Source: Psammoneis japonica (taxonomy: Eukaryota). From it: a stretch of DNA of 64,000 nucleotides. Each line of letters opens with the position of its first letter. Position 1 is the stretch's first letter. Below, piece by piece: positions 1 through 60,455 of the stretch. The stretch covers positions 124,001 through 188,000 of the forward strand of contig QPGO01000053.1 of the NCBI GenBank assembly GCA_008632985.1, in the 5' to 3' direction. The translations under genes and the position numbers were made by a program. The notes beneath the pieces are model-generated. The model did no database searches. It had not been told where the DNA came from and saw only the letters and a list, made by a program, of their open reading frames with translations.

Positions 1-2662
1 CCATCCTGTGAACAACCACTGCATTGCCTTGCACCATGGATGGATCTTTGATTCCAACCACCCTTTTGCATTGCCAGCAAAGGACATCAAGTGTTTCAAT
101 TGTGGTGTCTTGGGAACGAGGAACATGAGGTGAAATGCGTGGTGAAAAAGCATCTGCAACAAGTGTTCATGGTGCACCAGTTCGAACTTCCCAGGGCGGT
201 GCAGCAGAAGTTGCGTGCAAAAAGGAAAGCTTTTGTGTTGGATGGTCAATCTAGTTGCACAACATTGCCATGTCATTTGTCAGAATTGTTGCTGTCACTG
301 TCCCCTGCTGTGCTCTCATCATCCTCCACAGTGTCTTCCATGTCGTCATTCTCTCCCCCCCACTCACCAGTTTCGATGTCTTGTTCCTCCACCTCGTCTG
401 AACAGTCCTCAAAACAATCCATTGCCTCCCGCTGTTGGATGGCATCCAGAATTCCTTCATGCTCATCATCACTCAAATGACGTGGATGAAGAAGTGAAGC
501 CTCATTCCTGTTGCACGTGCTTGGCAGTTCCAGATTGGCTGATGGTTCGTTGAGCTCAATGTTGGCAATTGCAATTTGCTTGAGCAACACTCTTGTCTTA
601 CATTCCTCAGCATCACCGGGAGTGCACCATCCTCTGGCCCATGGAACAGGGTTAAGATGCATTCCCTTGCAAACCCATTCACCGGCCTTGACAGTTGTGG
701 GTGGGTCAAACTCTTTCCAAACCTCGTCCTCCTGTGCTTTGTGGGGGAGTTCATCCCATTGCAGCAGATAGAATCCCTCCTCAGATTCACAAGACAAAGT
801 GGCATGGCTGTTTGGAACAATTTCCTTGGCCATTTCCTCAGCAAGGAAGTCCAACACAGATTTGTGAACCAACTGCACCTCGTTGGCATCACTCTCATCT
901 GTTTGAATCACCTGACACACTTGCCAATCGTTCAGTCCCTCAAAGATGGGCCACAGTTTGCAAGCTCGGTTGCCACCTGCACATCGTGGCTGCTCTGTTG
1001 GCTCAACATTTTTAACCCAAGGCCATTTCAGCTGATCCAGGCAGGCTTCACAAGCACAAGGAATTCTTCGCATCGCAACCCAACCAATGGGGAAAAGAAG
1101 TTCAAATCGGAAATGGTGCAAGGCTCCAATGCCACAATGGCGCATGCACACTTGCGCCAATCCAATCAACTTGACTTTGATTGAAGAGCCAAGAACTTCA
1201 TCAGCTTCCTGCAGACAATGCACCCTTTGCATTGACTTTCGAAGGGATTCCCTCTTGGCATGTTTTCTGTCACCAACTGCGCCGAAAGCATTCTTGTTCT
1301 TTGTGAGCATTTTGCAACATTCCTTTGCATGACTGTGTGCGGCTACAACACTGTTGTCATCCATGACCAAAGCTTCAGGTCTAATTTTCTTGTCCTTGTC
1401 ATTGACTCCTGCAACAGTTGTGGACTGCATTTCTCGATGTGCGAGTGATTTGATGCAGGCTCCAATGCCATCAACCTCTCCTTTGCCATGTCCAGTTGCT
1501 CCAATGGCACGGTCAAACACAATGTTGCATTTGTGCACAAAGACAGACAACAAGCACAGTGCCAAAGCACATCGGCATTGTTTGGCACAACCATCAGTGT
1601 GATCCCAAATCACAAGCCACACCTTGTGCAGGTTGCAGTTTTTTAACCAGGTGACAAACTTTTCCAAGTGAGCATTGGTGGTGGTGGCATCTTGCTTGGA
1701 AGAGTCAGAGAGATGCGCATGATGTGTTTTCTGAAGCTTGTTGTCAACCATTGCATCACAAACTCTTCCTTTGATTGACAATGTTTGGTTGTTGCCACAA
1801 TGGTTGCCCTGAACTTGTTTGTTGAACTCTGCCTTCTGATGCTCGGAGCAGTCATGAGACGTGAACAGGCTGTTGGGTGTTGACTCAAATGCTTTGCGAT
1901 GCATTTCCATGCAATGATTTTTCCCAAGAATGACCACGTGGGGAAGGTGGTGGCAGAGCTTCCCTAAACTTGGAATGCAGTGCTCTTTTGTAAAGACACC
2001 AACTGGTTTTCAGAACCTTGTCAACAAGGTCCTACGTTTCACCTTTGCGCCCTGGTTCCCATCTGGATCTGCCTCACAAACAGGACATGCTTCCATGTGC
2101 ACACCATGCTTGGAACAGCTTTTTACAGTCAAGTGACGTTGAAACAAAACTTGGGGCACACTGGGACTTTCATTCTGTTCCAACAATGGAGTTGGACAGG
2201 ATGGGCAATGCTCGCATTCACCCAAAACGCATTTCCAATGAGGATGATCCTGACCATTGACATCGCCACAAGTGATGGTTGCAACTGCATCTCGGGCTTT
2301 AGGATGAAGGTGATGGCCGTTGGGGCCAAACGCTTCCTCTTGACAGACACGCATTGTTTCCTCCAATTTGCCAAGGGCACTGTCATGGTTCTCAAGTTCT
2401 CAGGATCCTCACTCGCGAGCTTCAACCGATTTTGCTCCACCTCCATCTCTTTTAAAAGCTTCCTTCGAAACCTGTTCAATGCATCTTGTAGAAAATTGGC
2501 ATTGGTGCAATCGCTGCATTGACACATGCTGCGTTGACTTGCGCTCATTTTTCGACACTGCTTGGGAATCAAAAATCAAAACATCGTGTCACTGATGAGG
2601 GTCTTGCCATTGGCATCACGTGCATGTTCGAATCCGCCAACAGACACAGGCTTCAACATGTC

Positions 2663-3058
2663 GACGCGTTCCAGCCCTGGGTGGGAGCTCGTAGCACTGA
2701 CGTGTGACACAAATAATTTTTATCATCCGTCGTATGTTTTGCACGTACATTTCTACGTATAATATTTAAAAAAAATTGTCCAGACTCGCTGTTTTGCGAA
2801 GCCCCAGACGTTTTACATAACGAATTTATAGAAACAGTAATGCGCCAGTTACATTCTTCAATGTCTGAAGAATGTAACTGGCTAAGTAAAAAACGATGTA
2901 CTTCAATCATGTGCGAGTTTGTGCGTTCGCAAAATTGCCTCATTTTCTGTTGGCGAACATTGACATTCTAATTACTGTATAATTTTACTACGGAGCTCGC
3001 ACGTAGAATTCTACGGGCCCAATGTCACACGGATTCCCACCTACGTCTGGAACGCGTC
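2663..3058. mobile_element. 396-bp MITE, copy 1 (intact)
   Basis: Imperfect TIRs GACGCGTTCCAG-N5-GGTGGGA; 4-bp TSD TGTC (2659-2662, 3059-3062); second copy at 4923-5236 + 10082-10166 in the opposite orientation. Confidence 0.92.
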
Positions 3059-3759
3059 TGTCGTTGTGCAGCTCACGCATGGACACATTGCGCAACCATT
3101 TGTTCACTCGTTTCTTGTTTCCATCTTCATCTTTAATGAGAATCATGTCTCGTGTGTTGGGAGGCTGCACTGTGTCGGGATGATTTGACAACCAGTGCAC
3201 AAATGCCTTTCGGATCTCAGGGGGAACTTTGTGAGGACGCCGACGGGGTTGCACTGAAGACCACATGACATCGTCAGTGTTTAAAAGCAGTGCCTCTCTG
3301 GCAATCTTTCCCTTCTTCATTTGGCGATGAACAGTGCTCCGTCTCAGGCCAAGTGCCTTGGCGCAGTCATGGGAAGACAACTTTTCCTCTTCAGCAGATT
3401 TTTCTGGTGAGCCGGAGATTCCAGCTGCAAGAGCACGGACAAACGATTTTTTGTCGTCGGCGAGGTGTTGACCATTGCTGGTGTCGTTGGCACGTGCCCA
3501 CATTTTGCCCAACTGCTTGGCAATTTGCAAAGCCGCAGCATTTGTTTTCAGCAATGTCAAATTGCAAGCCTGAAGAAATGGGGCTGTTTCGGGAAAATGC
3601 AAAGCACACACAAACGCACAGATTTGTTGTTCTTGAGTGGCGGCGCAAGACAACACTCCTTCTCTCACTTTGACCGCTGCATGACAAAGTGCCTGTTGGG
3701 GATCTTTGTGGGTTGCTTTGAATGCATGAGGATCAAAAGTGGGGCAACCTTGGGAGGCA

Positions 3760-4190
3760 GTGAGGTTGACAGCAGTTGGGTTGGCCGAAGCGACAGAGGG
3801 AGTGACGGTGGCATTGTCAGAGTCAGGGTTGGAGGGAGTGGCGGCCGCTCCTGCAGTTTGCGTTTGGGAGGGGCCTGGAGGTCTTGGCAAGGACAACCCT
3901 GGACAATGAGTGGGGTGTTCCTTGGAGGGGTTTGGGTTGAAAGCAGCCAGGTCGGTGGGAGCAACGGAGGAAGTGACGGCGGCATTGTCAGAGTGAGGGT
4001 TGGAGGGAGTGGCGGCCACTCCTGCAGTGTGCATTTGGGAGGCGCCTGGCGGTCTTGGCAAGGACGACACTGGACAATGAGTGGAACAGGTGTTGGGTTG
4101 AAAGCAGCCAGGTTGGTGGGAGCAATGGAGGGAGTGACGGAGGCAGCAGAGCTCGGGTTGTTCGGATTGAAGGGAGTGGCTGCAGCTGCT
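3760..4190. repeat. ~160-170-bp tandem repeat (~2.4 copies) in the Pro/Ala/Thr-rich N-terminus of the Sola2-like transposase
   Basis: agtgacggNggca recurs at ~3800, ~3971 and ~4132; peptide SLPRPPGxSQxxTAGxAATPSNPxSDNA is repeated. Confidence 0.85.
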
Positions 4191-5236
4191 TCAGCTGCAG
4201 CAACGACATGGTCGGAGACCGTGTCGTGTGTTTCAAGTTCACGACGAGGCTTCTTGTTTTTGCTGTTGCCAGTCCCTGACTTGTGTCGATGGCCAACTCC
4301 ATTTTGCTTCTTCCTCTTGTTGCCCATGATGCACTGGAAATTTGATTGAAAGTGTGCATCGAGAGGGCTGGTGGATGAGACGGATGGCAAGTCGAGAGGA
4401 CACATTTTTTTGGCGTGCTCAATCAAATTAACTCCATTGTGTCTGTAGAAATGAGGCATGTTCGGACGTCAGTTGAGTTGAAGAAGACCAAACACACAAG
4501 CTCCAAAAAATGAAAAAGTGAGTGATCACGAGCATTTTTCACGCAGAGTGGGACACCAGCCGAAAATTACATTTGGCACAATTGACTCCCCAATTTTTGA
4601 TCATTTCGAAAATCAAAAGGTGAGTGTACACCCGAAAACACATGTAAAGTGTACACTCACCCTTCGATTTGGCAAAAAACGGATTTTGAAAAAGTCATTT
4701 GCACTGAACCTAAAAATGAATCGAACCCACGCGGAGCGCCTGGAGCTGGAACAGGCCTGACGACAGTTGCGTGACAAATTCCCAGAGTGCATTTTCATTG
4801 ACCAGGCATTGCTCAACAACCACCAAGAGTTTTGGAACAATCAACGGCAACAATGTTTTCTGCAGAATGAGCACTTTCTAATGGAGTTGCTTTTGTTTTC
4901 ACACCTCAAGCAAACTGCTGATGACGCGTTCCAGACGTAGGTGGGAATCCGTGTGACATTGGGCCCGTAGACTTCTACGTGCGAGCTCCGTAGTAAAATT
5001 ATACGGTAATTAAAATGTCAATGATCGCCAACAGAAAATGAGGCAATTTTGCGAACGCACAAACTCGCACATGATTGAAGTACATCATTTTTTACTTAGC
5101 CAGTTACATTCTTCAGACATTGAAGAATGTAACTGGCGCATTATTGTTTCTATAAATTTGTTATATAAAACGTCTGGGGCTTCGCAAAACAGCGAGTCTG
5201 GACAATTTTTTTAAACATCACACGTAGAAATCTACG

Positions 5237-8200
5237 CACCACGGTTCACCCATAACATTAGCGTCTGTAGAGCGATTTTTTTTGTACGAGCGTAGAATCA
5301 GTACCAAGATTTTGTGTAGGCTTGTGACGACACGACGTCGCACATTTTTTCCGCCTTTCGCTCATTTTTCGTTCGCATCCGAAACCTTCACCATGACGCT
5401 TCGAAGTGTTTCGACGGCCGTTGTAAGTGTTACATGTACAGGCGATCAGTTTATTGCATTATTGACATTCAAAGTCATACCTCACATTGCTTGTTTGTTT
5501 GAAATTGCTTGGAAAGTAAAGAAATTCAGTTGCCAACAACGGGGAAGTAATGTGCAAACAGTTTTAGGGTGCCAACAAGTGTCGCGGCGGGGTTTCGTGT
5601 CGGTTCATCTTGTTGAACCGAGAGCTGGAACATTGTTTCTTTCTCATAATCAAGGTGAGCTGCATGTGACCATTGCAATTCCAAGCAATGCCAAAATGTT
5701 GAAATGTTCTTTTCCATTTTCTCAATTGAAGTTTCTCCTCTCTTTTGCACTCTGAAGAAGAAGCAACAGCACTCGATTGATTTTTGCTTCTGTTGCGGCA
5801 GCAGGGTCTAATGCTGTCATGTGATGATGCAAGAAGGCGAGTGCGGAGGATCTGGGATGAATTGTTGATCCGCTGGTTTGTTGCTTGCTCCGTCAGACAT
5901 CAGTTGTTGCACCAGTCGATTCCACCCGCTGCGCCGAGGAGAAAAGGTGAGAAGTCTTGTCAGTTTTCGTTTCATTGCGGTGCAAAGCTCTTGAATTGTC
6001 GTTTGGACATGCAAGAATGCGCAAGTGTGGTTTGGAGTTTTGCCATTGACTGAATCTTGCTTTTTCTTTCGATGCTGTGCTCAGGTCGGTGTGAGCATCA
6101 AATGGAGCCCACCACGAATCCGGCACCTTCCCCCCCCTCGGCCATGTGGTAGACTTCCTTCCAGTCTAGACACATGAGGGTGCCATCAGGGGTCTGGAAG
6201 CATTCCCCTCCCTCCACCATCTCAGCCAATTGATTCGCCACAGCCACATCATCATTCGCTCTTGTTTGGCTTGAAACGTTGTAAGTGCCGCGCTTCTTCC
6301 CTGTTGCGCTCTTTTCAACAACGGCTTTTGCTTCTGACACGTCTTCTTTCAATCCATTGTGTGGTCTCTGGCACATTGTGTTGATTCGTTGTGTTGTGGA
6401 TGCCACAGACTTGAGCATGTGTCGCATTTCATTTGCGACTGGATGGGCATTCTCGAAGCCCTCCTTGGACAATCTGCCATGCATCCGCCACCGTTCCAAA
6501 AAGCCACACACGTGGGCTTCAAGATGATGAAGCTTGAGGAAGACATTGACCCCAGGGAAGCACTTGCGCCAATTCTTGGACAGTTGGAATAACGCATTCT
6601 TCAACTGCACAAGATCTCGGTCTGTTGGTTTCTTTTGGGATTTCAGAATCTTTGAAACTACGAGCAACGGCCGCGCAACGTTTCTAGAGCTTTCCATTGG
6701 CTCTTTTAAAAGATCATGTAAGTTTTGCTGTTGGTCATCACCTGCATGGCACTGCACCACATTCTCACAAATGGTGTCCCACTTTTCTAAAGATTTCATT
6801 CCGTCCGCGTGGCTCAACTCGCAATCGCTGTGCTCCGCACGAAACCTCACCTGCGCCAACACCTCAAAGCTCTTGTTGTGTGCAAACTCGCCTCTCCCTT
6901 TTGGCTTCTTGCCATTCTTGTCACGGCATGATTGCAGAGATGACAGAAATCGAGCAAGTCCCTCCTGTGACCCATGCTCCTGTCCCAAGTTCGTCATCTC
7001 GGCAGCATGATGGGCCACCCAAACCTTGGCATGCTGCAACTGTTCTTGGAGTTGTTGCACTCGTGCTTCATCTCGGTTGTCTCTTGCCATTTCCTTCTCA
7101 AGGTCCTTTTCTAATTTCCTTTGTGACCTGACATGCTGACTTGAATTCCTTCTTGCCTTCAGCCATCCTGGACACTTCTCCTTGATGCGATTCTCTGCCG
7201 CGGCATGCACACGGTCGACCTCAGCACTCCATGCTGAATTCTTTTCAATCAAACGCATGCGCTTCCTGATTTCATCGGCAAAATGAGTGAAACGCCTTGT
7301 GGCGCGTGCACGGGTGCCATCGTTTCCTTGTGAGGCGGTGCTCTCAAAAGGGGAGCCTTGTGAACGCTCCCGCATGCAAGCCTGTCTTCTTTGTTGGACG
7401 ACGGTAAGTTTCCGTTGAGGGTGCGTTCGGTCCACTTTTGATGAAGCAAATGATTGGCATGATCTCCTTCACGCACAGGGGCTGGTGTGCACTTGACTGT
7501 CGCCATCTCATTTTCGACATCCATTGCTTGAATCCATTTGGGGATGTGGCTTGTAAAGTTCACGTGATCTTCCATGCAAATCAAACAGTTGCATTGATTG
7601 GATGCAGTGCCTTGGCCAGAAACTGTCAGCGACTGCTTTGTGTCGTTGCTCGGAAACCCGATCATTTGCTGGAATGTCGCGTTGATGTTCCCATTGTCCC
7701 CCACTGCGAGTTTGCCTTCTTCGAACTCATGGCGACACACAATTGGCCCGGTGGCACCGACCGAAAGTCTGAACCCGTCACATTCACTGGAAGTTCCATT
7801 CGACTTTACCAACGTGGCGACGAGCTCAATCTTGTTCCCTGGAGCAGTCGCGCAGCTTGAGAGATCTGCCGTGTCAGGCTGTTCTTCATTTGCTTCTTGC
7901 TCTGCCGGCAAAGCGGCATCTGAAAAGGAGGCGTCGACTGCAATGCTGTCAAACGACACTGAATGTTCAGCATTGCTTGAAGAGGAAATGAACTTGACGG
8001 AAGCGCGTTTGCAACAGCTGCGTCCATTGCCGGCGATGAATGTGATCATGTGGAGGGCATCATCCAACAGATCTTGAAAGAATGCTGCCGTTGGAAACAT
8101 CACATCACAGGCAGAGGCTCGAAGGTTGAACTCGCATTCTGCTGCACACTCGCACTGGCACAGGGGCTGGCAATTTGTTCCTTTATTTCCGTCTTTGCGA

Positions 8201-10081
8201 TTTGCCACGCGAATCAAAAGGGTGAATGCATCACCTCCTTTGTCACTGCCAAATGCTGCCACGAGTTTGTTCGTTTTGGAACTGAAGGACTCGGATTTCT
8301 CGAATTTGCCAGCAATGTGGCACACCTCGGCAAGCTTCTCCAAAACACGTTGCGGTTGCTTTGTCCACCAAAATGCCCTCAGAGCTTTCTTGTTTCCGTT
8401 CTTGTCTATCATCATGGGTGTTAGAGTCACTCCATGCGCCAGACTGCCTTTTGATTCGCATCGTGAGATTTTTTTCTTCAGCTGGGTAGAGAATGTTCGA
8501 ATGTTGAGATGAGCCTGAATGAACCTGTCCAGCCGCAGCACTCCGTTTAGACTCATCTTGACACAGTCTCTAAGTGCTGCGACCCTTGGCTCATCGAGCA
8601 CGAGATCTTGTGTGCGAATTAGAGCACAATCGAAACTGCTTGCAACCAGTTTCAAAAGGGTTTGGTCCTCATCGCTGTTTTCTTGAAGCAGTTCAATTGT
8701 TTGGTTGACTGTCTTTGACCGATTCTTCGCATTTCGTGCACTTGTTTTCGCTGTGGGTTTTTGTGGTTTCGGCAACGCCGCATGCAGTCTCTCTGTTTTG
8801 CGGTTTGCCTTGTCCAGGACGGTCAACTTTGTGATTGCGCTTCCGGATTGATCAGACAATGATTGCAGCATTAGATGGGCAAGTGTCTGCAATTCTACAG
8901 ATGGCAGAAAATCCTTGTCATCACGCACTGTCGCAAGCAACTGTGTTGCTGCACTAGTTGCAGTCGGTCCACCTGTTTCAACAGATGACAACAGCATGCT
9001 GCAACCAACTCGAGAGATGCCTTTGAGACGAGGAAACTTTGTCGGGCCTTGCGCCACATTACAAGGGCTCGGTGTGACTGTTTGTTTCCTGCCAGCGTCT
9101 TCCTCGCTTGGATTGCAAGGGCTTGGCGTGACTGTGCGTTTCCTGCCAGCATCTTCCTTGCTCTGGAAGCTGCCATCCTGTGCGTCGCAACGGCTTGAGT
9201 CCATTTCTTCGGCGGTGGGGGCAACATTTGCAGCATCAAGGGCACCTTCTTCAGTGACAGCTGCTTTGGAATTCAAAGAATGACTGGAGAGGAAACTCAT
9301 TTGATCCTTGTTAGAAGCAATGACAAGATCACAAGGTGCACAGTTTGACGGTTTTGGGATGAGAGCATTGTCGTCCCTGGCTTCTAGCACGGTGACAAAG
9401 AATGCACCAGAATGCTCTCCAAGTTTGAGCATTGGAAATCTCTGAAGAAGCTTGTTGACATGACAAAACTTAGTGAACGCCAAGTCAAACGCATCCTCGG
9501 TGATGTCGAGCTGCTCCAGAAGAGTGACAGCTTTGGGGAAGCGCTTTCTTTGTTTCTTGTTGAGCTTGGGGGGCCACCACAGTTTCCCAGGACGAAACTC
9601 CATGTTCTTGATTTGTTTTTGCATGTGGGCAATGAAAGACTCCAACCGAGCCACCACTTCTGTGCCAAAACAAGCGACAAAAAAAGCGCATTGGTTGGCT
9701 GCAAGGAATGCATCGAAACAGGATTCCAAAAATGTGTCGGCGACAGCAACAACATTCCCGCTTCCAACCCTCGGCAAAGGCTGGCCATGTGAGCTCAACA
9801 CATGCCAAGGTTCGCATGTGGGGCCGTCATGCCGAGGGTGTTCATGCCTTTACTCGACATTGCGCAACGTTTTTCGCTCATCGTCGATGCGAAAAAAAAA
9901 AGTGTGTTGTGTTGCGATCTTTGCTTCTGGTGCATCACTCGTAGATTCTACGTTCTCCCTTCGACAGGTGTTTTTCGCTGAGAATTCCAAATTCCCAATG
10001 ATGGTCTGCATGTGCCACCAAATGTTTTTAGTCAAATGATTTGACGCCAATGCCACCTCACGCAGGAGTTGAACCGTGGTG
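5237..10081 (-). mobile_element. Chapaev/Transib-like (RAG1-type transposase) DNA transposon, 4845 bp
   Basis: 12-bp TIRs CACCACGGTTCA (5237-5248) / TGAACCGTGGTG (10070-10081). 4-bp TSD TACG (5233-5236) / TGCG (10082-10085). The empty site is visible in MITE copy 1. Confidence 0.85.
6098..9801 (-). pseudogene. RAG1/Transib/Chapaev-type DDE transposase (~1200 aa; frameshift near 7295)
   Basis: FGSDKGG (first D); NDTKQSLTVSGQGTASNQCNCLIC resembles RAG1 [40 protein letters not shown]...GRLSKEGFENAH resembles RAG1 HKTLAHV...GAWASEGNESGN. No Tyr in the 850-aa ORF. Confidence 0.8.
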
Positions 10082-10170
10082 TGCGTGCGAAACATGCGAT
10101 GGATGATAAAAATTGTTGTTGTCACACGTCAGTGCTACGAGCTCCCACCTGGGGCTGGAACGCGTCTGAT

Positions 10171-11586
10171 GTGGGGTGCCATTCAGACATGACCACAGGC
10201 TGGGAGGGGGGCACGCAAACATTTGATCACCTGCACATGTGTTGCCTTCTTGAAGGCACGCAATGGCATTCGTCAGAAAGTGCATGACACGGGTTTGAGC
10301 AAAGACAAGATCTGCATCAACCCCAAGCTTCTTTGTGTTCTTCACCGCCAGGAGTGGGGGCAGCTGCTCCGGTCTTGCGTGTCCATGCTCAATTGCTTCC
10401 CGGGTGCTGTTGAGGTTGTCATTCTCGTTTTCTAAGCCACTCAGGGCTGGAAGAGGTTCATGCCTCGTCTGAATGCAGAACCAATGCCCACTGAACATTG
10501 AATCAGCACATGATGCAAAAACTCATCCAAAGCGTTGCAAACACAAATCACGAATGCACTCATCCCGCTGGCTCCACTGATGCAGAGTCGGACCCTGTTC
10601 ATGTGCCGATGTGGGGCCAAAAGTTGCCAACGTCATGCCACATGGATCGCATTGAGTGAGCATCTTAATGGCATGGGTGTGATGATGCCCGTCCCAAACA
10701 GCTCACTGCATCATGTGTGCAAAAAGATGTCGGGCCCCATCATCTGCACTCGCTGGTCCAGATCCAAGATGGCAACACTGGCAGATGGATGTGTCAATGA
10801 AGGAGCATGTGTCTGGCTCCCTGCGTTTCGGTGCACCGACGTGGTTCCATGACACCTGTCGCCGCACTCCTCCTGCCGTGCATGTTTTCTTCTTCTTAAG
10901 ACAGGCACAGATTTTGTCACGAAACATGGGAAAGCATGGAACCCACATGGCAATTGCCTCTGGCCCAATCAAGTGATGGAATTTCACATCAAGACACATC
11001 ACAAGAAATCGGCATCCTTTTTCCCACCTGTTCTCGGAACCCCAAAATCCATCGAATCGGCAAGCTTCTTGTGAGCCACAGTTGTGGACATTTTGGAAAG
11101 CATGCAGATGAGAAGCTCCTCGGAGGTAAAATGGCAGAAACTCCCATTGTGCTGCTGACTGTTTTGAGGAACCCAAACATCCTTGTCCAATTCAAAAATT
11201 TGCAACAAAGCCCGGAGTTCACCCTTTGAGAGCCGTGTCTCTTGGTCTGATCGATCGTCACATTTCAAGAAATCAATTGATGTGTCCTGATTTTTGGGAA
11301 TAAGATGACCAGACATTGCACCTTGTTCATCCAGATCTGGCAACGCCTGATCAAGCTCCACACACACAATTGCGAGATCAAAGCGCCTGCATGCTTTCAC
11401 AATGTGCTGGAGGGCGAGCAGGATTAAAGCCCTGATTGACAATGCTGCCAATGACTCTGCATTTTCTTTTGTCACATTCAATGCCACCTTTCCCATCCCA
11501 AGCTGCATCTCATAACTTTTCAGGTGCAAAACAAGACCCTTCTGCACCTGCTTTGCACACATGCACTCTTTGACCGTGGACGACAT
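10171..11586 (-). pseudogene. PIF/Harbinger (HARBI1-like, DDE_Tnp_4) nuclease
   Basis: Motifs SEELLICMLSK, SFIDTS, WDGHHHTHAIK..PCGM..FGP, ADS, REAIEHG and LTNAIACLQEGN..F.CPPPSL, with frameshifts and in-frame TGA stops. Confidence 0.75.
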
Positions 11587-12624
11587 CGTCGCCCATCTCT
11601 TTCGTGGCAAACTCCGCCTGGAAAGTTTGCGCCTCCCCACCTGTGACAGGATTGCACTGAACCACACTCACGCAACATCCATCATACAACATCTGTCATC
11701 CACAGTCCACACCTCGTTTCTTTGGTGATTTTGAGCTGCAGATCGATTGTTTGTTGGTTTGCCGTGCTGCGCTGCACCTTCGAGCCCCCACACTCGGCTT
11801 CTCCTTTTTGCGGCAAGGCTGGCACAAGCAAAAACTACAAAGCAAATGTGGCGCATCCCACTTTTCATGTTCATGATGGATGCGACTGAACAAGAACGAC
11901 CTCGACGGAATTCCCAACCATCCGGCAATCGTGTTTTTATCATGGCTGTCGTGCTTCTCGCCCCAAACCAAACAGCGCCGTTTGGCCCCGTGCTGTTCGT
12001 CGCGGCACATTGGAAACCATCTGCTTCAACACGTCATCATCAGAAATGCCACAAATGATTGCGCAATTGAACTGTCAGGGTTCTCAGGCCGTCAAATGCC
12101 ACTCTGGGGGAAGTCTCCAGCCAGCTGCTGGCTGAAGAATTTTGTGTAGAAATTGCACTGAAAGAGTCTGTCAATCTGTGCGTTTGGGGGTTTTGGTGAA
12201 CGCTGGACAGACTCGTCTTCTTTTGCATACACGTAAAAATTGTACTTGAAAAACCCCCAACCCGAACCCCATGCAAGACTGACCCAAGAAGCGCGGGAAA
12301 GTTCTTGGCGAACAATCACCGTCGAAAGATAGAGCGAAGATTGAGAATGAAAAGAATGTTATTTGACGGGACTGCTTCGCGAAGGAGATGGCAGTCGAGC
12401 AACACTGACGGATCATTTCATGATAAGAAGCGCCTTTTATTCTTGCCTACTGTACGTTGTTACATTGTGTTCAGTCTCCATCGCACTGTGCGTCTGTGTT
12501 TTGTTGCATCTCCCTCCGCAAGCAACTTACGGTGCCATCTTACCAACCCCCCTCGATTCGTTGTTTTGTTCTTTCGTAGAAACGTGTCAATCCACTCAAA
12601 ACTCGACCATCAAGGAGAAAAACC

Positions 12625-14640
12625 ATGGACAGCAAAACCAGCAAGAGAGCAGAAGGGAAGGGAGAACATGCCCATCAGCATCTCCCAAGCCCGGCTTTAG
12701 AAGAAGAATTTATCCCAGAGTCAAACTCACGCCAAGTTGGTACCTTTTCTATGGAAGATGAAGTTCCACTCACAGAAGTTGGTGCCTATGCTGTGTCAAC
12801 GGAGAGGCATGTATCTGTGCGACGAGATCGTGGTGTCTACCCGGACGAGCAATCGATTTTTGCTCCTGAAACAGTTGTTGACCATGAGGACAGAGAGCGT
12901 GAGCCACCCGCAGAAGAAACGGAAGAGCAACCTCTAGCACTAGATGTGCCAATTGCTGCCGAGGTGGCTCAATCTGATGAATCGTTACAGGCACGAGTAA
13001 ACGCTCTCCAAGAACGAGTGAATCAAATGGAACAGCCCCTCAGACAGCCAAAACCTCCTACGATTCCTGCGCAAGAGGTGCACCCCATGTCCGACGCAAC
13101 AGTTGTGACGATTGATGTGGACGATCCACAGGATGGAGAGTCACTCACAGTGACAAACCACGACGACGACGTTACTAAAAAACGAAGGCGTCTCTTTCTT
13201 GCATTGGTGCTTCTGCTGATGTTACTTGCCGTCTTGGTCGCGGTTGTAGTCGTTCTTGTCACCAAGAACGGTTCAAGTCCGGGTACGGCAGTTCCGACCA
13301 GTCCTGCGGAACAAAATGAAGAAACAACACCTCCTTCATCATCCCCGCCTTCAACAGCTCATCCAGTGACCAGTTCACCAGTAACAAGCCCACCGGTCAC
13401 AACTCCTCCCGTCACAAGTCCACCGGTATCACAGCCTCCTACGCCAGCGGGACCGGCATCATGGAAACCACTTGGACAAGAGTTGATTGGAGCAGGTGTG
13501 GCCGACTTTGTTGGTCATGCTGTCTCCTTGTCCCGAGATGGGCGTGTTCTTGTAGTTGGTGCTCCAGAACCCGGTGAATCAGCTGGCCGTGTTAACGTTT
13601 ATCGATTGGACGAGGCTACTCAAACTTGGGTTGGCATGGGCGAAGCAATCAGGGGCAAGAGCAACAACTACCGCTTTGGCTGGTCCGTGACGTCCAACGG
13701 AGACGGGAACGTAGTCGCAGTCGGTGCCATTCCTCGTTTTGCGTTCTTAGAGGAGCTCGCTGGCTACGTTAGTGTGTACGAGTTTGACGACTCTGCTTCA
13801 AGCTGGGCTCAAATTGGCTCTGATATTAATGGGATCGATGATGGAGAAGGCTTTGGAGAATCTGTTTCTCTGTCAGACGCTGGAGATATTCTCGCAGTTG
13901 GAGCAGTTTTGGTTGATGTCGTCACTACTCAAGGACTGGTGCGACTGTACAACCGCGATACCATCCCACCGTGGCAGCAAATGGGACAGACGCTCTTTGG
14001 CGACGACATTGAGGATAAGTTTGGCCATTCGGTGACTCTGAGTAAAGCTGGTACGATTGTCGCTATTGGTGCCTATGATTATGGAGATGACTTTGAAGGA
14101 AAGGTTTCGGCATATCAGTACCAATATGACACCACCTCGTGGGTCCCACTTGGCGACCCGTTACGCGGAAATGCAGACGGTGAACGCTTTGGGTTCTCTC
14201 TCGATCTTGACGACAGCGGCTCTGCCATGGCTGTAGGAGCCAGATGGGGCAAGGCAGATCGTAAGGGCAGCGTTTCTGTCTTCGACTATGACTCCCTACA
14301 GTTCGAGTGGAATAGGCGCGGTCAAATTCTCCACGGTAAGGCTGATTATGACTTGTTTGGTTGGTCTGTTTCCATTAGCTCTGATGGCAACCTGGTTGCC
14401 GGAGGCGCCCGGTTCAACGACGACAACGGAAACAACACCGGCCAGGTCCGGATCTTTGAGTACGACTCAAGCAGTGACTCTTGGGATCAGTTGGGATCAG
14501 ATCTGAATGGCGATGATCCTCACGAAGAGTACGGCAAATCTGTTTCTTTGGGTGGCACCTCGACAAAGCCAGTGATTGCATGCGGCGGCCCATACTATAA
14601 CAATCGCAGAGGACATGCCGAAGTGTTCGCCTTTCATTGA
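12625..14640 (+). CDS. Single-pass membrane protein with Pro/Thr stalk and FG-GAP (integrin-alpha-like) beta-propeller
   Basis: 671-aa ORF; TM segment LFLALVLLLMLLAVLVAVVVVLV; about seven FGxSVSLSxDGxxxAVGA repeats. Confidence 0.88.
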   Translation: MDSKTSKRAEGKGEHAHQHLPSPALEEEFIPESNSRQVGTFSMEDEVPLTEVGAYAVSTERHVSVRRDRGVYPDEQSIFAPETVVDHEDREREPPAEETEEQPLALDVPIAAEVAQSDESLQARVNALQERVNQMEQPLRQPKPPTIPAQEVHPMSDATVVTIDVDDPQDGESLTVTNHDDDVTKKRRRLFLALVLLLMLLAVLVAVVVVLVTKNGSSPGTAVPTSPAEQNEETTPPSSSPPSTAHPVTSSPVTSPPVTTPPVTSPPVSQPPTPAGPASWKPLGQELIGAGVADFVGHAVSLSRDGRVLVVGAPEPGESAGRVNVYRLDEATQTWVGMGEAIRGKSNNYRFGWSVTSNGDGNVVAVGAIPRFAFLEELAGYVSVYEFDDSASSWAQIGSDINGIDDGEGFGESVSLSDAGDILAVGAVLVDVVTTQGLVRLYNRDTIPPWQQMGQTLFGDDIEDKFGHSVTLSKAGTIVAIGAYDYGDDFEGKVSAYQYQYDTTSWVPLGDPLRGNADGERFGFSLDLDDSGSAMAVGARWGKADRKGSVSVFDYDSLQFEWNRRGQILHGKADYDLFGWSVSISSDGNLVAGGARFNDDNGNNTGQVRIFEYDSSSDSWDQLGSDLNGDDPHEEYGKSVSLGGTSTKPVIACGGPYYNNRRGHAEVFAFH

Positions 14641-14812
14641 AGTGAGCGGTGGATGTAGATTCATGATAAATTTTTTACTGTACCTTTTGCACAACGTTGA
14701 GCGGGGACAGAAACATCCGAATATGATGACCTTGCGTACCTTCCCAAGAGAGCTTTGACTTTGCTGAACATCAATCACAATCCATATCGTATAAGTGGTA
14801 AACATTGGATTT

Positions 14813-16186
14813 TCATGTTGAACGTGTTTTTGTCCACGGCCAGACCACCTTTTGATTTGATCCTCGTTTATCTCGAACAGTAATATGCGTTGAGTGTATT
14901 TCTACGGACGTCAGCTGCTTCTTTTCCAGGTAGCGCACAGCTTTGCTTGCCTCCCAGTCGCTGTCCATGAGGGTTAATAGCGTAAGCTTGTGGATGGTGG
15001 TCACGTCACTATTGTCTCGCGCTTGCGCGAGTCCAGTAAAGGTCCATTCCAATCGAGTTTGTAGACGATCTTCTCCACAAATCAATGAAAACACTTTAGA
15101 CTTGCCTCGGGGTGGTACCCACCAAGGAGCGTCAAGTCTCAAATTGACTTGCGAACCGCCCAAAGTTCGTCCGGGCATTACCGGAGTGCAGAGTGAGTCA
15201 CCTATCGAAACTAAAAGCTCTGTGTGACTGCCGACTAAGGTTGCGATTATGATTCCAATGGCAGCAAAAGCCAATAATCCAATGGTTGCTCCAGACAAGC
15301 TCGGTTTTGTTGAATTCGGCGGTCTTTCCTTGGAAATATCCACTTGAGTTTTATGATCAGTCATTGGTTGCAGTGACTTAGCGTTTTCGCCTACAGCTTT
15401 TTCAGAAACACTGGTTGACTTCTGATCTGGGGACTTTGGTTCATCCTTGTCCTTTGCAACCGGTGACGGGATAGGCTTTGCTGCTGGCGAGGAAGATGAT
15501 GTGGAGCTCTTTTTTCCTCGGAACCATATCTTTGAGGTTGGTTGTTTCGACGGACTGGGACCAATCTCAGCCTTCTCATGGGCTGTTTCTACTTTCGTTT
15601 TAGAGACTGGCATTGTGTGTACCTTCCCGATTTCCTCGAACGTGATTTCCTCTTCTGCCGGTTCTTTCTTTCCCGACGCTCCTTCTTTGCTAGGAGGAGT
15701 ATGCGGGGCGGCACTCTTGTTTTCCTTTGCATCGGCCGTCACTGTTCCCTGTATAGTCGAAGGCGATTGTTCTGCAGGCGCTGCATGAAACAGATTCTTC
15801 ACACTTTCCACACTGCCCGACAGAGCTTCTGTTCGTGCTTGACGTGCCTCTTCAAATTGCTTTTCGAATTCACGAACCACTCGAGCCTCGTCGCACCGAA
15901 AAAAGTACCGTTGCCAAAAGTCTTCAAAAGACACTTGTGCCGGAACAAGTTTCTTGTAGTACATTCCAACAGTGTTGGGATGTTGCTCAAGAATGATATT
16001 CAGTTCTGGCCTTCGCTTGTAGATGGTCTTGTAGAAATCAAACAGAAACTGCTTCACGTCGTCCATCTCTTCTTGACTCTTTTTCGACCCATCTTTTTGC
16101 AACAGCGGTTCCGTATATGTTTTTTCTTGATTTCTCCGCCTAGCCACCTCCAAGGACGCTTTCTTTTGACGAAAACTAGCCAACAT
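14813..16186 (-). CDS. BSD-domain protein with a TM helix
   Basis: 457-aa ORF; LVPAQVSFEDFWQRYFF is a BSD signature; TM IGLLAFAAIGIIIATLV. Confidence 0.75.
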   Translation of the reverse strand: MLASFRQKKASLEVARRRNQEKTYTEPLLQKDGSKKSQEEMDDVKQFLFDFYKTIYKRRPELNIILEQHPNTVGMYYKKLVPAQVSFEDFWQRYFFRCDEARVVREFEKQFEEARQARTEALSGSVESVKNLFHAAPAEQSPSTIQGTVTADAKENKSAAPHTPPSKEGASGKKEPAEEEITFEEIGKVHTMPVSKTKVETAHEKAEIGPSPSKQPTSKIWFRGKKSSTSSSSPAAKPIPSPVAKDKDEPKSPDQKSTSVSEKAVGENAKSLQPMTDHKTQVDISKERPPNSTKPSLSGATIGLLAFAAIGIIIATLVGSHTELLVSIGDSLCTPVMPGRTLGGSQVNLRLDAPWWVPPRGKSKVFSLICGEDRLQTRLEWTFTGLAQARDNSDVTTIHKLTLLTLMDSDWEASKAVRYLEKKQLTSVEIHSTHITVRDKRGSNQKVVWPWTKTRST

Positions 16187-25454: not shown

Positions 25455-25489
25455 AGAGAGTGCTCGAGAAGAAGCCTCCAGTAGAGAAG

Positions 25490-28400
25490 AGAGAGGATGT
25501 CCCTGCCTGCAATGCATCAAATGCTCGCCTTGGGCCTTGGGTTCGTCGCTGGCTTTGGAATCAAAGTTCCCTCCATCACTCTGCCTGAAGAACGCAAAAC
25601 CACAATGAGAAAACAAATGACAAGCTGAAACGAATGCCGCCGAAAGAGCGGGCAGTGCAAAGGCTCTTTCCAGCTCAACAAAAAATGTCCCAGTTGGGGA
25701 AAAATTTTTTGAGTTGTTCCTCTGCCTCTCTCTGCAGTGGATGATGGAGATGTGCTGACGAGGGGATGTGGTTGGTTGCCAAGAGAGGGAAACATCATCC
25801 TGCCCCCCCCCCCCCACGCTGCTCACCCACAAAGGCCAAAGCACCTTTCAAAGCTGAAAAAACCTGGGACAAATCAGCAAACAACTGGCAACTCTGGGGT
25901 GACAGACTTGCACTTGTCTGTCATTCCAAGCAGTTTTGGCAGGGTCTGCAGCTGCCCAAGTGGCTCAAACAATGCCTTTGTTGAAGGCTCGACAGCACTG
26001 CCAAAAGTGTCAAGCAATCACCCACAGGACATGTTGGCAGAAGCTTCTTCAACTTCTCTCCATCACTGCTAACAACCTTTTGTGAACAGAAGCAAGTTGT
26101 GGGATGTTTTGTGTGTGTGCAACACTGCTGCTCACAACAAGCAACACAAATTTTTTAATCTGTTGCACAGAAAATTGTGCTTCAATGACAGTGTGCTGTG
26201 CACTTTGCAGCTGTCTTCTTGATGCCTGGGGTCTTCAAGGCATGTCAAGAACAATTTGCCTCTTGGGGGGTTGCTTCAACAATGGTGTGCATGCACAAAA
26301 GAAAAAATGAGTTTGTCTCAAAAATGTGTGGCCAACCCACTTGCGCTCTTCTTGTCAACAAGTTTTTGGGGCTGTTTCATGCTGACAGTCATTCTTGCAT
26401 TGCTCTGTTCTGGCCATCAAGCACTTGTGTGTGATTTCTGTGCCACCCTGCACAATTCACCATGCACCTGGCAAAACAGGGCAAGCTCTCTCTCTCTCTC
26501 TTGCTGACCTCTGAGGCAACCCTTGCTGATGGTTGCACTGCAAGAAGGGCTGCACTGTTGCTTGTGTGCCATGCCTGTTGTGCGAATGTCAGAGTGCAAG
26601 AACACCAAATGTGGTGGACTCATCTCTTTCCTGTGCCAAGCCCATCAACAGATGTGTGGAATGAAGAAGCGCTGCTTTTGTTTCTTTTTGGTTCTCTCAG
26701 CAGCATCACAAAGGATGAGTGTGGCAATGGCAGTGACACCACAGAAATCGTGGCCCTGTCTTGCTGGTGCAGGCTTTTTCAGGTCAACAAGTCGGTGCAA
26801 AAGATCACATGAGAGATTTGTTGCACAATGTGCAGATGTTTTCACAGCCACAAGCTGAGCAACTCTGGTCAACAAGAGTGCGAGTGTGGCACTTGCACAA
26901 GGTGGCTCAAAAATGTCTTTCAAGTGAGCCAACCTGTCAAAAACCAAGTGCTTTGTTTGTTCCTTTTTAGCAGGGGATCCCATGTGTGCCATTGTGCATC
27001 CTGATCTGACTCTGGCAGTGCTGGCAAGTGATCCCACAATGAGGTGCAAATTTGACCATTCCACACAAAAGGCAATTTGGGCATTGGATTTCTAACCTGT
27101 TCATTCTAAGGCATTTGTTCAAAAGTGCCTCAGCTGGCACATCATGAACTGCACAAAATTGCAGACAATTCTGAAAGCAACAGTTGTGCCCACCAAAGAA
27201 AAAAATGTTGGAACATCTGGGTCAGAGGTGGTTTTTGCATGGCAGATGGACAATGTTGCAGTGGAAGATCATGCACTCGCTGGTGATTGTGGACAATGTG
27301 GTGAATTTGTGTTTGCAACTTGGTTTGAGTTGCGAGTCCAGTGCTCACTTTTTGGTGTCTGCACCTGGTTGACATGGCAACAGTGTTTGGCATCAGCATC
27401 AGCCATGAGTTTGCAAGCCACATTGTGAGAGTTTGGGGTCAGCGAGACTGGACAGCCCACACACTGGTCGGCAAGCTGCAGCACAGAAGCTGAAAAGTCA
27501 CAGTGCGTTGCTCAAAGGTGTGGTGTCATCAAAAGGCTGGGAAGTCAACAGGAGTCCACAAAGAAAAAGGCCAGAAAGTCCGTGGGAATCCAAAGGAGGT
27601 GCACCTCACATTGGTGGACTGCAGCAAACAAGCCAGCTTGATGAGGGCTGCAAAGATGTGATCTCTGAAAGGGGGCCTTTCTGTTGAAGAAGCTGTCAAG
27701 GGTCTGTTGAAAGAGGGTGTGGGGCAAGGTTGCATCAGGGTTGGCAAGACAGAGTGTGCAGCTGTTGGCAAGCCATGAAGCTCCAACACAAGTCCCAGAA
27801 AATGTGGGCAAGGACACAGCTGAGTGCAGAAACATGAAGACAGTGTGTGTGTGACACCATTGCTGAGTCAGGATGACACATGCAGATGGTGCATTGCATT
27901 GAAACCACAAGGAAGATCAGCAAGCATGTTGAAAGAATGCAGGTGCCAGCATCTCAGAGGCAGGAGAGCATGCCAAGAGATCAGACTGCAGCCTGTTGGG
28001 AGACGCCACATCAGAGAAGGACGAGGCAATCTGGGGCAAGCAACGTGACCACTGTGCAAAACAGATCAAGCTCAATGAGAAGCAAGCAGCGCTGATGGCA
28101 TGACTGGCTGGTCACCATGAAACACACACCCAATCATGTGGTGAAACATGTCTGCCACTGGTGCAGGCCCTGCCAACAGCAATCATTTGGTGCCAAAATT
28201 TGGGTTGTGGGATTGAACTGTGTGTCAAAAAATGGATTTGAACATTTGTCCAGTGAGGCCACCTTGTTGGGCAAAATTGCATGTAAATGCACACATTTGT
28301 GCAAATGGGTGCATGCAACTTGTGCAGAATGTGCCAGCCTTGGGTTCTTAGAAATGCTCTGCCATTTTTCTGCACCCCCCTCACAAAAAACCCATGCACT

Positions 28401-29810
28401 GTCTTGCACAACAGTGCAAAATGCACTGTGAAGATTGCGCTGTTGCTTGTGTGCAATGCTTGCTCTTTTGTGCAAATGCCAGAATGCAAGGAGACGCCAA
28501 CAAAGGGGGGGCAGCCATGGGCTCCTGAACTGGCCAGTCAAGAACCATTTGCCTTTGATCCCATGCAGCATGCCATGTGCCCACACCCTTGTCCAACTCT
28601 GCTCCAGCACATGCAATCTCAAGGTGGGATGCAAGTTGACACTTTTGCACAAAGAGCACTTTGGGGCTGCTCTGAACACACACAAAGCAAACTTCATGTG
28701 AGTGCTTTGTGCACACTGGATTTTTTGGCGTGTGTTCATTCTCAGGCATTTTTTGTCCAAAGCTCCAACAGGTGGCACATTGTGAACAGAACAAGAAAAG
28801 CACTGCAAATGTGTGTGTCCATTCTAAAAACAGTGCGTGTGTGTGTCCACTCTAAAAACAGTGCTTGTGCCCACAAAAAAGAGAGAGTGACCACATGCAA
28901 GAAGCAGGGAACAAGTGTTGGCTCTGAGCCCTCCCTCCAGCTCTGCACAGGTGTCTGAAAAGAGCCTGAGCAACTGGCAGAAGAAAAAGTTTTTTGCACC
29001 AAGGCACCCAACAGAGGAGAGAAGGTGTGGCCTTGAAGTGTGCAAATGCGCAAATGTCATGCACCTCCAAACTGCATGTTGAAGCAAGTGCGCACAAAAA
29101 CCCAACCTGACCTGCAACTGTGAGAATCATGCTCAATGTTGCAGCAGGTGTGATGGCCAAGCTAAAGCCAAACAACAGAGCCACAGCTTGCTTTGAACTC
29201 TCCCCTTTTCCTTGCCTGCAATGTGGTGCAAGAGCAAGCAGAAATCAAAAATGCAAAAACAAACTGGCTGATTGGCAGCAAAAGCAATGAAAAATGTGAG
29301 CCAGTGACAACAAAAATGCAAAGCTTTTTGCTGCTTTGGCTTGCAATGCATGTTCCAGAAAATGCACACTGCGCTTGCCAACAAGCACAACGAAGCCAAA
29401 GCACTTGTGAGCAGCCAGCAGCGGCTGTTGCAGAGAAGCACCAAAACAGCTTCGTTGCCTCACTTTGTGGAAAGAGCTCATAAGAGCTTTGGCCTGCTGG
29501 CACCTTTTGTGCAAAATGTGCATGCCATGGCTGTTGCAAAAACATGTTCACGTGCTCTGGTGCAAAACAGAGCCCTCCCAATGTCCAAACTTGCCAAGTC
29601 CGCAGAACACCCCAGCATGCTTTTGCACGAAGAAAAGATCTTCCTCAGAAAGGTCTTTCCCTTTTCCCTCCTCTGCACACTGCCAAGACTCCCATGCGAT
29701 GTTGGGCACTCTCATCAGACTGACAATCCAGCCAGGGTGCTGTTGCACAACATCGCCACAGCAGCTGGGGTCCGGGTAGGTGGCAAGACGAAACAGGCAG
29801 AAAGTCACAG
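25490..29810. mobile_element. Heavily degenerated repeat/transposon relic of unknown family
   Basis: About 4.3 kb with only ~11 TA dinucleotides by eye, few CG, and excess CA/TG. No coherent ORF. Same composition as the identified transposons at 1-12 kb. Confidence 0.6.
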
Positions 29811-59527: not shown

Positions 59528-59804
59528 GGTGTCGAGTGTCCCGGTATCGGGTGTCGGGTATCGGGTTGCAAAATGAGAGTGGCAACCGGCAGATGTGAGT
59601 AAATGAGAAAGGAAAAAGGCCGCAATGACGTCCGCGATCTTCACGCGAAAGATCGATCGCAAATATTCGAAATTCTGCGCAACGGCGTCACAAACGCAAC
59701 GCCGCGCGCCGCCGCCGGCCGAAGCCAGCGCGTTCTGCCACTCGTTCACTAACTCCAAAGAACGAAGCAGACAAACATACCGTACCAAGCAAACAGCGAC
59801 GGCG

Positions 59805-60455
59805 CTGGCTGTTCACTGTCACGGATGCCACGACAACATGATCTTCTGTTCCTGCAGTTGCCATTTGACAGTTGCACATCTGCAAGCACCTGGATGTTTT
59901 TTTTCAGCTCTGATGTGCTGTTTTGAATGAGGCGTTGAGCCCCCCACTCCCATGCACCTTTGCTGCTCGCTCTGCTGCTTCTGTCCCTTTTTGAGCGTGG
60001 TGTGGGCAGACATGTTGTGACTGCAACAGGAGATTGGCACAAACAGCCAGTGCGGTCGATTTCTACACCAAGGCCCATTGCTGGATCATCACCACCTCCA
60101 GATCTAGCATCTCAAAGAGGCCACAAGAGCAAAAATGCAAAACTAAAAGAGAGGCGATGACTCTCTTTCAAGCAACCAATTTTTTGGAAAAAGCCCTCCT
60201 GGTGTCTGACCTTGCCATCAGGCCCTTTTAAAAATCGCAGGTCCAACATTGCTCACTCACACTTGCCCCAATGACTCTCTTTGAATCAACAAGTTTTTGA
60301 AGAACCCTCAGCTCAGCTTGTTTGAGCCCTTGAAATCGCAGGTCCAACGTTGATGCTCGCTCAAACTTGCCACACCACACAGAGACTGATGATGAATGAT
60401 CCGATCCAATGAATCATCAAAGACACGCGCAAAAGCAAGAAAAGGAATCCCGCCA
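59805..60455. mobile_element. Short TA-depleted repeat relic with an internal ~110-bp tandem duplication
   Basis: About 4 TA in 650 bp; 60157-60268 resembles 60271-60370 (atgactctcttt...aaatcgcaggtccaac...acttgcc). Confidence 0.55.

Follow-up and report, generated by a model that had tools for sequence, protein, structure and literature searches.

Evidence for TpA-directed hypermutation of mobile-element relics in the diatom Psammoneis japonica

A 64,000-nucleotide stretch of the Psammoneis japonica genome (contig QPGO01000053.1 of assembly GCA_008632985.1, positions 124,001 to 188,000; henceforth referred to as the window) carries relics of mobile elements in which the dinucleotide TpA is nearly absent while CpA and TpG are in excess. 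The locus raises the question of whether these elements were TpA-poor from the outset or lost TpA by mutation and, if the latter, by what kind of process and in which DNA. An earlier reading of this stretch, henceforth referred to as the original prediction, had proposed a repeat-targeted hypermutation of TpA to CpA or TpG. The analysis presented here indicates that dead copies of diatom mobile elements have quite probably been rewritten by a TpA-specific A:T>G:C transition process, to which a slower decay of CpG was added.

To our knowledge, only a handful of eukaryotic defences that mutate intruders are known, such as fungal repeat-induced point mutation (RIP), APOBEC in animals, and ADAR, and all of those acting at the DNA level produce C>T changes. 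The first report of an A:T>G:C editor specific for TpA dates from 2026 and concerns one rhizarian alga, for which a candidate enzyme was proposed. We know of no earlier evidence of TpA-directed hypermutation from a diatom; the footprint described below provides such evidence and is saturated on transposons.

Extent and dinucleotide balance of the depleted blocks

TA was profiled along the window by a per-kilobase scan followed by a 150-bp profile, using strand-symmetrised ratios of observed to expected counts (o/e). Expected TA counts were computed at the host o/e level of 0.55, and a Poisson P value was obtained for each block. Five TA-depleted stretches, referred to as blocks A to E (Table 1), were found with TA o/e values of 0.04–0.11. 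The values for blocks A, B, C and D were 0.08, 0.08, 0.11 and 0.04, respectively, compared to 0.55 in the rest of the window, and the observed counts of 15, 9, 46 and 12 TAs compare with expected counts of 99, 60, 225 and 154 (P 3e-16 to 4e-50). Per dinucleotide, TA frequency was 0.0053 in the blocks vs 0.0363 elsewhere in the window, and block B includes a run from 3282 to 4429 without any TA. The density of TAA plus TAG per 1000 positions was likewise 2.5–5.0 in the blocks vs 15.7 in host DNA. The 15 TAs counted in 1–2692 agree with the approximately 16 that the original prediction had estimated by eye for 1–2640.

Table 1 Coordinates of the TA-depleted blocks and of the other features discussed in the text. 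Values for TA, CG, CA and TG are o/e ratios; ORF, open reading frame.
Feature	Position	Strand	Description
Block A	1–2692	-	TA-depleted relic of a multi-copy mobile element; extends past the window start
ORF in block A	273–2009	-	578 aa, DUF7869-like, 1 Tyr
87-bp repeat	2663–2749		Inverted copy at 10080–10166, 89.7% identity
315-bp element, copy 1	2744–3058	+	TA 0.88, CG 1.6; later insertion into the A-B element
ORF at block B	2988–4190	-	400 aa, 1 Tyr
Block B	3100–4879	-	TA-depleted continuation of the element family of block A
315-bp element, copy 2	4923–5236	-	Inverted, 95.9% identical to copy 1; TA 0.82, CG 1.5
Spacer between relics	5237–5559		TA-normal; TA 0.57, CG 1.43
Block C	5560–12147	-	Relic of an element that is mostly low-copy; TA-depleted
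ORFs in block C	7249–9849, 6098–7468	-	Halves of one ~1190-aa DUF1280-like protein
Host gene, FG-GAP repeats	12580–14640	+	Pfam FG-GAP_2 E 1e-17; 686 aa, 18 Tyr; TA- and Tyr-normal control
Block D	25482–29777		Intergenic relic; TA 0.04, CG 0.17, CA/TG 1.85; longest ORF 229 aa
Block E	59783–60458		Short patch upstream of the pyrenoid-shell gene; TA 0.11, CG 0.48, CA 1.43, TG 1.76

The loss of TA was accompanied by a gain of CA/TG, with o/e values of 1.71, 1.49, 1.52 and 1.85 in blocks A to D vs 1.18 in the rest of the window, and by a variable loss of CG (0.40, 0.61, 0.71 and 0.17 vs 0.98). The o/e sum of the four pyrimidine-purine (YpR) dinucleotides TA, CG, CA and TG was nevertheless conserved, at 3.90, 3.67, 3.86 and 3.91 in blocks A to D and 3.89 in host DNA. 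The lost TA and CG thus turned up as CA/TG, as transitions predict. Both strands were equally affected, with CA:TG counts of 297:277, 152:180, 597:657 and 487:507. The CA and TG outcomes were interspersed (runs-test z of +0.2 to +1.5 in the blocks vs -2.9 to -3.4 in host DNA), and the runs test found no single-strand tracts of CA or TG in the blocks. There is thus no evidence for processive single-strand editing.

The borders at 12147, 25482 and 29777 are sharp, with host TA density regained within ~150 bp. The original prediction had placed the end of the effect near 12.15–12.25 kb and its return in two further places, which correspond to the border at 12147 and to blocks D and E. It had treated the whole of 1–12150 as depleted, which is accurate for blocks A to C but passes over two TA-normal islands, at ~2693–3100 and 4880–5560, that interrupt the depleted region. 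None of 186 host 1-kb windows had a TA o/e below 0.24. Host DNA had a TA o/e of 0.51 in ORFs and 0.61 outside long ORFs, where CG was 1.03, indicating that neutral single-copy DNA does not drift to the depleted state. Within the 64-kb window, the TpA depletion is limited to putative mobile-element relics, among which blocks A to C are multi-copy or encode proteins of the element type, and host DNA is unaffected.

Direction of the change in protein families and among copies

Two of the relic protein families could be verified. The 578-aa ORF of block A (family A) has 22 homologues, drawn from metagenomes and one set of marine transcriptomes, that are ~35% identical and align over 95% of its length, and its nearest atlas clusters are of the DUF7869 type and are spread over animals, diatoms and haptophytes. 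The two frames of block C (family C) align with a single relative, P0023, of which the frame at 7249–9849 (866 aa) covers residues 2–779 and the frame at 6098–7468 covers residues 780–1160. An exhaustive search returned 151 relatives of the block C protein, and a word-indexed search with the 866-aa ORF returned none. Members of this uncharacterised family are 1000–1600 aa long and are loosely tied to DUF1280, which was matched in 6 of the 26 aligned members; the block C protein probably represents a transposase or element protein that has not been described before. Neither family matches a curated transposase model. In Pfam, no relic ORF reached the curated cut-off of any family, nor did the relatives of family A that are free of the mutations. 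The only match listed for block D, a weak one to Aconitase (E 0.0011; 18.5 bits vs a cut-off of 28.7), was unsupported by a solved-structure search and was dropped as due to chance. ORFs are intact in blocks A and C and fragmented in block D; approximately 3.7 kb of coding sequence in block C contains a single frame break and no in-frame stop.

The change is seen at tyrosine, both codons of which contain TA. In family A, 13 Tyr columns are conserved in 12 relatives, and of these the window protein keeps Tyr in 1, while Cys occupies 6 columns, His 4, Leu 1 and Phe 1. The former Tyr codons read TGC/TGT and CAC/CAT, the products of single TA>TG and TA>CA changes. All 22 family A relatives contain 1.8–4.1% Tyr vs 0.17% in the window ORF. 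Family C, which is independent of family A, behaves in the same way: none of five majority-Tyr columns is kept (His at 2, Cys at 2, Glu at 1), and 25 relatives contain 1.5–3.6% Tyr vs none in the 866-aa ORF. The Cys:His ratio at former Tyr columns of both families is 8:6. The Tyr counts confirm the contrast drawn in the original prediction (0 in the 866-aa ORF and 1 in the 578-aa ORF vs 18 in the 686-aa host ORF). Its three examples of replaced Tyr motifs were all located, at ~1595 (DGCAKQCRC), ~10519 (FAS-C-ADS) and ~10393 (IEHG-H-A) on the minus strand, but a corresponding family consensus (DGCxKQYRC) was established for DGCAKQCRC only. Since TA>CA/TG changes destroy TAA and TAG and cannot create stops, the frames stay open while Tyr becomes Cys or His. 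Conserved Arg residues of family A read His, Gln and Lys in the window, which points to CpG decay.

The DNA of the relatives is not depleted. Family A was found at 71 metagenome loci, and coding TA o/e was determined for 47 of these, which were chosen by hand and are mostly the longer matches; values ranged from 0.33 to 0.89 with a median of 0.63. Across all 71 loci, 2 of 526 1-kb windows had a TA o/e below 0.25, one in L063 and one in L049. L063 is GC-rich with normal CA/TG. L049 (1–1182), an environmental contig carrying a decayed, stop-ridden copy from the same element superfamily, has a TA o/e of 0.14, a CG o/e of 0.04 and a CA/TG o/e of 1.77, and hints at TpA erasure in other genomes or loci.

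Copies within the diatom were compared using contigs from three runs (X1, X2 and X3) of one sample, possibly that of the assembly itself, for which the library type is not on record. Contigs were built from 31-mers and placed on positions 1–16000 of the window at 80% likeness, with a word depth of ~60 corresponding to a single copy; X3 yielded no contig on these positions. The paralogue comparison covered 40 of 1534 differences. Among these 40, the paralogue had TA where the window has CA or TG at eight sites, and the reverse was found at one site; two further sites were adjacent double differences with TG in the window and CA in the paralogue. At the paralogue sites of block C, the window letter accounted for ~60 of 210–860 depth units, the equivalent of one copy, and the other letter for 120–740.

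Taken together, four independent lines of comparison (both protein families, metagenome DNA and paralogues) argue that these copies lost their TA through mutation. The TpA to CpA/TpG process that the original prediction had postulated in mobile-element relics is upheld by the YpR balance, the replacement of Tyr by Cys or His, and the paralogue sites. The findings that might have spoken against it did not materialise, as the relatives are TA- and Tyr-normal, the differences among copies favour TA loss, single-copy host DNA is not depleted, and contigs assembled from the sample reproduce the depleted sequence of block C.

Targeting, chemistry and alternative explanations

The original prediction had assumed targeting of repeats and had counted three unrelated transposons in the first part of the window; neither assumption was borne out. 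Contigs from other copies join position 2639 to 3059 and 2662 to 3070 without the intervening 315-bp piece, which shows that blocks A and B form one element, into which the 315-bp piece has inserted in this copy alone. When the window was compared with itself, blocks A to D showed no paralogy to one another. Word depth was 2000–3400 over blocks A and B (~2500–3400 in A) compared to 55–155 over the FG-GAP host gene, so that the family of the A-B element numbers some tens of copies. Most of block C has only 2–7 times the single-copy depth, yet its TA loss is saturated. The high-copy piece at the edge of block C (12050–12350) showed no similarity to the rest of the region. Contigs were also observed to join 3029 to 10143 and 3060 to 12139, so that in other parts of the genome short pieces shared by the relics connect them in different arrangements.

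The 315-bp element provides the opposite case. Its bins have depths of ~57000 (copy 1) and ~47000 (copy 2), or roughly 800 copy-equivalents, and both copies keep TA and CpG. This element is CpG-rich with an internal palindrome and is among the most abundant repeats of the genome; no obvious target-site duplication was seen at either copy. The two copies differ at 13 sites, 4 of which are TA vs TG or CA. The sparing of this element and the saturation of low-copy block C show that copy number is not the trigger, so that targeting of the kind known from RIP is not supported. Location inside a targeted neighbourhood alone is not the trigger at present either. Either the process ended before the insertion, or it depends on a property absent from short non-coding elements, for example length, transcription or a matching small RNA. 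Because a nested non-coding element in hundreds of copies is untouched, we infer that targeting follows not copy number but another feature, such as transcripts of coding elements, their small RNA or their chromatin. X2, unlike X1, skips 128 letters with GT..AG ends at 12452–12579, just upstream of the FG-GAP gene, which makes it probable that X2 is RNA and gives that gene a 5′ intron. X2 covers the host gene and a 12–16% diverged paralogue of block C; some copy of the block C family thus seems to be transcribed, whereas the lack of X2 cover over blocks A and B is no evidence of silence.

In the proposed process, each TpA would be struck independently on either strand, giving TpG or CpA, until ~80–90% of TpA sites are lost, and the process would halt at the element ends. 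A second and slower process, deamination of methylated CpG, would add to the same CA/TG pool, and its progress would date the blocks, with C the youngest, followed by B and A, and D the oldest. TA loss is about equally saturated in all blocks while CpG o/e ranges from 0.71 (C) to 0.17 (D), which suggests that TpA editing came in a rapid initial burst and that methylated CpG decayed slowly thereafter. Decay of methylated CpG alone was rejected, as block C combines a CpG o/e of 0.71 with a TA o/e of 0.11 and its TA loss needs a second process. ADAR-type hyper-editing through an RNA intermediate was also rejected, given the survival of TTAG/CTAA and TTAA and the absence of tracts.

The bases flanking TpA may carry information on the agent. 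Among the 82 TAs surviving in blocks A to D, ATAT was absent and ATAC/GTAT occurred once, and TTAA and TTAG/CTAA were over-represented 3–4-fold (conservative chi-square, P 2e-7). Product words were in excess by 9.5 per kb for R-CA-R and by 3.1 per kb for R-TG-R. A model converting R-T-A to R-C-A (equivalent to T-A-Y to T-G-Y) outperformed its mirror in every block (r 0.19–0.43 vs -0.58 to +0.05), and all six of the six informative paralogue sites fit this rule. The process possibly has such a preference, although the set of survivors could also be influenced by TAs newly created through later C>T changes. A T-A-Y preference would agree with the U-A-C-G motif read by bacterial TadA. The requirement for a 5′ T and the possible preference for a 3′ Y would both, if indirectly, fit an ADAT/TadA-like agent with the HxE-PCxxC fold, and our tentative choice of chemistry, held at somewhat short of even confidence, is deamination of adenine in the 5′-TA context by an enzyme that resembles ADAT/TadA or has the deaminase fold otherwise.

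The foremost alternative places the attack on thymine, with the T of TpA oxidised to 5-hydroxymethyl- or 5-formyluracil by a TET/JBP-type dioxygenase; the product mispairs with G and gives T>C. Such a change before A is indistinguishable in sequence from A>G after T, and its preferred context would simply read R-T-A. Dinoflagellate 5-hydroxymethyluracil is enriched at TpA and TpC. TpC/GpA is counted as not depleted in the blocks (GA/TC o/e 0.83–1.09 vs 1.11 in the rest of the window), nothing in the window is specific to thymine attack, and the sole experimental study of this signature proposes adenine deamination, albeit without a test. Thymine attack is regarded as unlikely.

A somewhat less probable alternative is one-time editing of a transposition or integration intermediate in the manner of APOBEC3 on retroviral cDNA, whereby copies arrive mutated and the chromosome then remains quiet. 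It would account for edges that match element ends without spill-over into the flanks, for the nearly untouched 315-bp copies, and for an even TA saturation across blocks that differ 4-fold in CpG decay, which again suggests an early burst. A single-stranded intermediate is nevertheless difficult to reconcile with interspersed CA and TG and no strand-coordinated tracts, or with the four TA/TG or TA/CA differences between the 315-bp copies. Mutations in the alga Bigelowiella natans, moreover, arise in situ in long-integrated DNA, according to the preprint.

It is highly improbable that the elements are intrinsically TA-poor, through foreign origin or because TA/UpA is selected against, for instance where a TA-reading nuclease has to be evaded. 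TA is under-represented in the window generally (0.55) and the relative L049 is also TA-poor, but L049 is itself decayed and full of stops, the other relatives are TA- and Tyr-normal, and paralogues in the same sample keep TA. Selection would favour Phe in place of Tyr, and Phe is found at only 1 of the 13 columns, the usual replacements being Cys and His.

Sequencing or assembly artefact, whereby base calling would consistently misread a modified base present at the TpA sites of silenced DNA, was considered as well, given that all runs came from one sample and that their library types are not on record. Block C is reproduced by contigs of 999–1376 bases with 0–2 differences from the window and a depth of 59–64, compared to 55–61 for the host gene. 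As contigs of single-copy depth reproduce the depleted sequence, a base-calling artefact is excluded to a very small residual probability. A strand-specific miscall would turn each former TA into CA when read from one strand and into TG from the opposite one, and would break k-mer contigs every 20–30 bases, whereas contigs of 1.0–1.4 kb agree; each former Tyr codon is cleanly Cys or His, and the paralogues differ site by site.

The A>G errors of Pol eta occur at WA motifs. Error-prone repair synthesis of this type, recruited to silenced chromatin and offered as an alternative in the original prediction, is just as improbable, since WA includes ApA and neither AA/TT (o/e 1.24–1.38 in the blocks vs 1.18 in host DNA) nor AT (0.69–0.93) is depleted, which also argues against an ApT-directed process; the depletion is confined to TA, and the survivors are enriched in TTA/TAA contexts.

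Several points weigh against the proposed TpA-specific process or narrow it. The ancestral state is deduced from homologues with 21–39% identity and from 11 informative sites among 40 of 1534 differences. The artefact check is strong in its logic, yet it draws on the same single sample and is not independent. The statement that only mobile DNA is affected rests on one 64-kb window, and it could not be demonstrated that blocks D and E are mobile elements. Since TpA is self-complementary, sequence alone cannot separate A from T as the attacked base. Support for the T-A-Y (R-T-A) preference is mixed: Tyr codons following a pyrimidine became Cys and His at a ratio of 2:2, where the rule predicts only Cys. 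Finally, the most repetitive sequence is unaffected, which fits a defence only if targeting does not follow copy number or if the process ended before the insertion.

Neighbouring features, related systems and significance

Beyond the depleted blocks, the window contains a pyrenoid-shell gene (Pfam PF25192, E 8e-53; PDB 8wqp, E 3e-37) and a ribosome-biogenesis ATPase gene, the named best matches of which are all from diatoms (50–61% identity over ~3/4 of the query). A CpG spike at 59600–59750 (24 CG in 150 bp) lies at the 5′ end of the pyrenoid-shell gene and adjoins block E, and the preceding 165-bp stretch (59435–59599) recurs at 62463–62612 with 81.5% identity. GC-rich tandem repeats (76–90% identity) occupy 36727–37723, within long ORFs that overlap on the two strands. 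The low TA of this stretch is due to base composition and repeats, and the CA/TG signature is absent (o/e 0.87–1.03).

The closest known counterpart is found in the chlorarachniophyte B. natans. In mutation-accumulation lines, A>G or T>C changes make up 230 of the 231 mutations observed in a giant virus and a virophage integrated in the genome, all of these changes are stated to lie on TpA, and mutation rates are ~1000 times the background (Mettrop et al., bioRxiv 10.64898/2026.01.13.699255). The same text describes 124 TpA-depleted clusters in the genome, with DDE and reverse-transcriptase domains enriched among TpA-depleted genes, and proposes, without a test, an ADAT2-like DNA adenine deaminase (10.64898/2026.01.13.699255). 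Of the blocks described here, A, C and D pass the cluster cut-offs given there (TpA ≤0.43, CpA+TpG ≥1.52), and block B falls narrowly short with a CA/TG value of 1.49 (10.64898/2026.01.13.699255). The two cases share exclusive A:T>G:C change at TpA, giving TpG or CpA according to strand, confinement to foreign or mobile DNA, and clusters poor in TpA and rich in CpA/TpG (TA frequency 0.0018 in the low-TpA genes of B. natans, 0.0053 here). They differ in that P. japonica is a diatom and offers a fossil footprint only, whereas de novo mutations were measured in B. natans, and in that the transposon relics are at saturation (o/e 0.04–0.11), whereas the hypermutable virus region is given as 0.45. 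The diatom adds the replacement of Tyr by Cys or His as a read-out, sharp borders where the elements end, the sparing of the very high-copy 315-bp element, a possible T-A-Y/R-T-A preference, and CpG decay on top. By analogy, we infer that the diatom process is a system of the same kind. The original prediction knew of no such description in diatoms, and no report of a TpA-hypermutation signature in diatoms was found in full-text literature searches or in term look-ups in two papers on diatom transposons (PMC2806351 and 10.1101/2025.10.24.684338); the same spectrum had, however, been measured in B. natans in the 2026 preprint, which also put forward the ADAT-type candidate of the original prediction.

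Other systems are more distant. RIP in ascomycete fungi is likewise a rapid, transition-only hypermutation of mobile DNA that makes no indels and leaves a dinucleotide footprint and dead copies. Unlike the present process, RIP makes C>T changes mostly at CpA, creates TpA and stops, lowers GC and is triggered by duplication; here TpA is destroyed, no new stops arise, GC rises and the most duplicated sequence is spared. Methylated-CpG decay is present as the second process (CpG 0.17–0.71 in the blocks vs 0.98 in host DNA), but it cannot remove TpA and is slower, as block C shows. APOBEC3, acting on retroelement cDNA, and ADAR, acting on repeat RNA, also inactivate mobile or viral nucleic acid by editing, and ADAR shares the preference for a 5′ U. 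APOBEC, however, causes C>T changes, and ADAR acts on RNA with a 3′ G preference and leaves strand tracts, whereas TAG/TAA survive and tracts are absent here. TadA and ADAT2-ADAT3, tRNA adenosine deaminases of the type put forward in the B. natans preprint, have a natural target, A34, that always follows U33 and thus lies in a 5′-UA context.

The footprint has consequences for genome annotation. As the frames stay open, Tyr is lost and no curated Pfam family is matched at cut-off, such relics evade profile searches and are mistaken for genes; gene callers will read them as odd orphan genes. A natural editor of adenine in double-stranded DNA with a two-base motif would be of interest to the base-editing field. 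If the diatom footprint is of the same kind as that in B. natans, comparative genomics of shared deaminase or dioxygenase genes, together with diatom genetics, would offer routes to the enzyme. The system would then span distant algal lineages and act on ordinary transposons besides viruses. It is conceivable, if speculative, that algae of the SAR (stramenopile, alveolate and rhizarian) group, and perhaps a wider set, share an old TpA-editing immunity. Its agent, an adenine deaminase with a T-A-Y motif, would be guided by transcripts or small RNA and not by copy number or the surrounding chromatin, which would explain the escape of the nested non-coding element, and in diatoms it would sterilise coding elements to saturation soon after their arrival.

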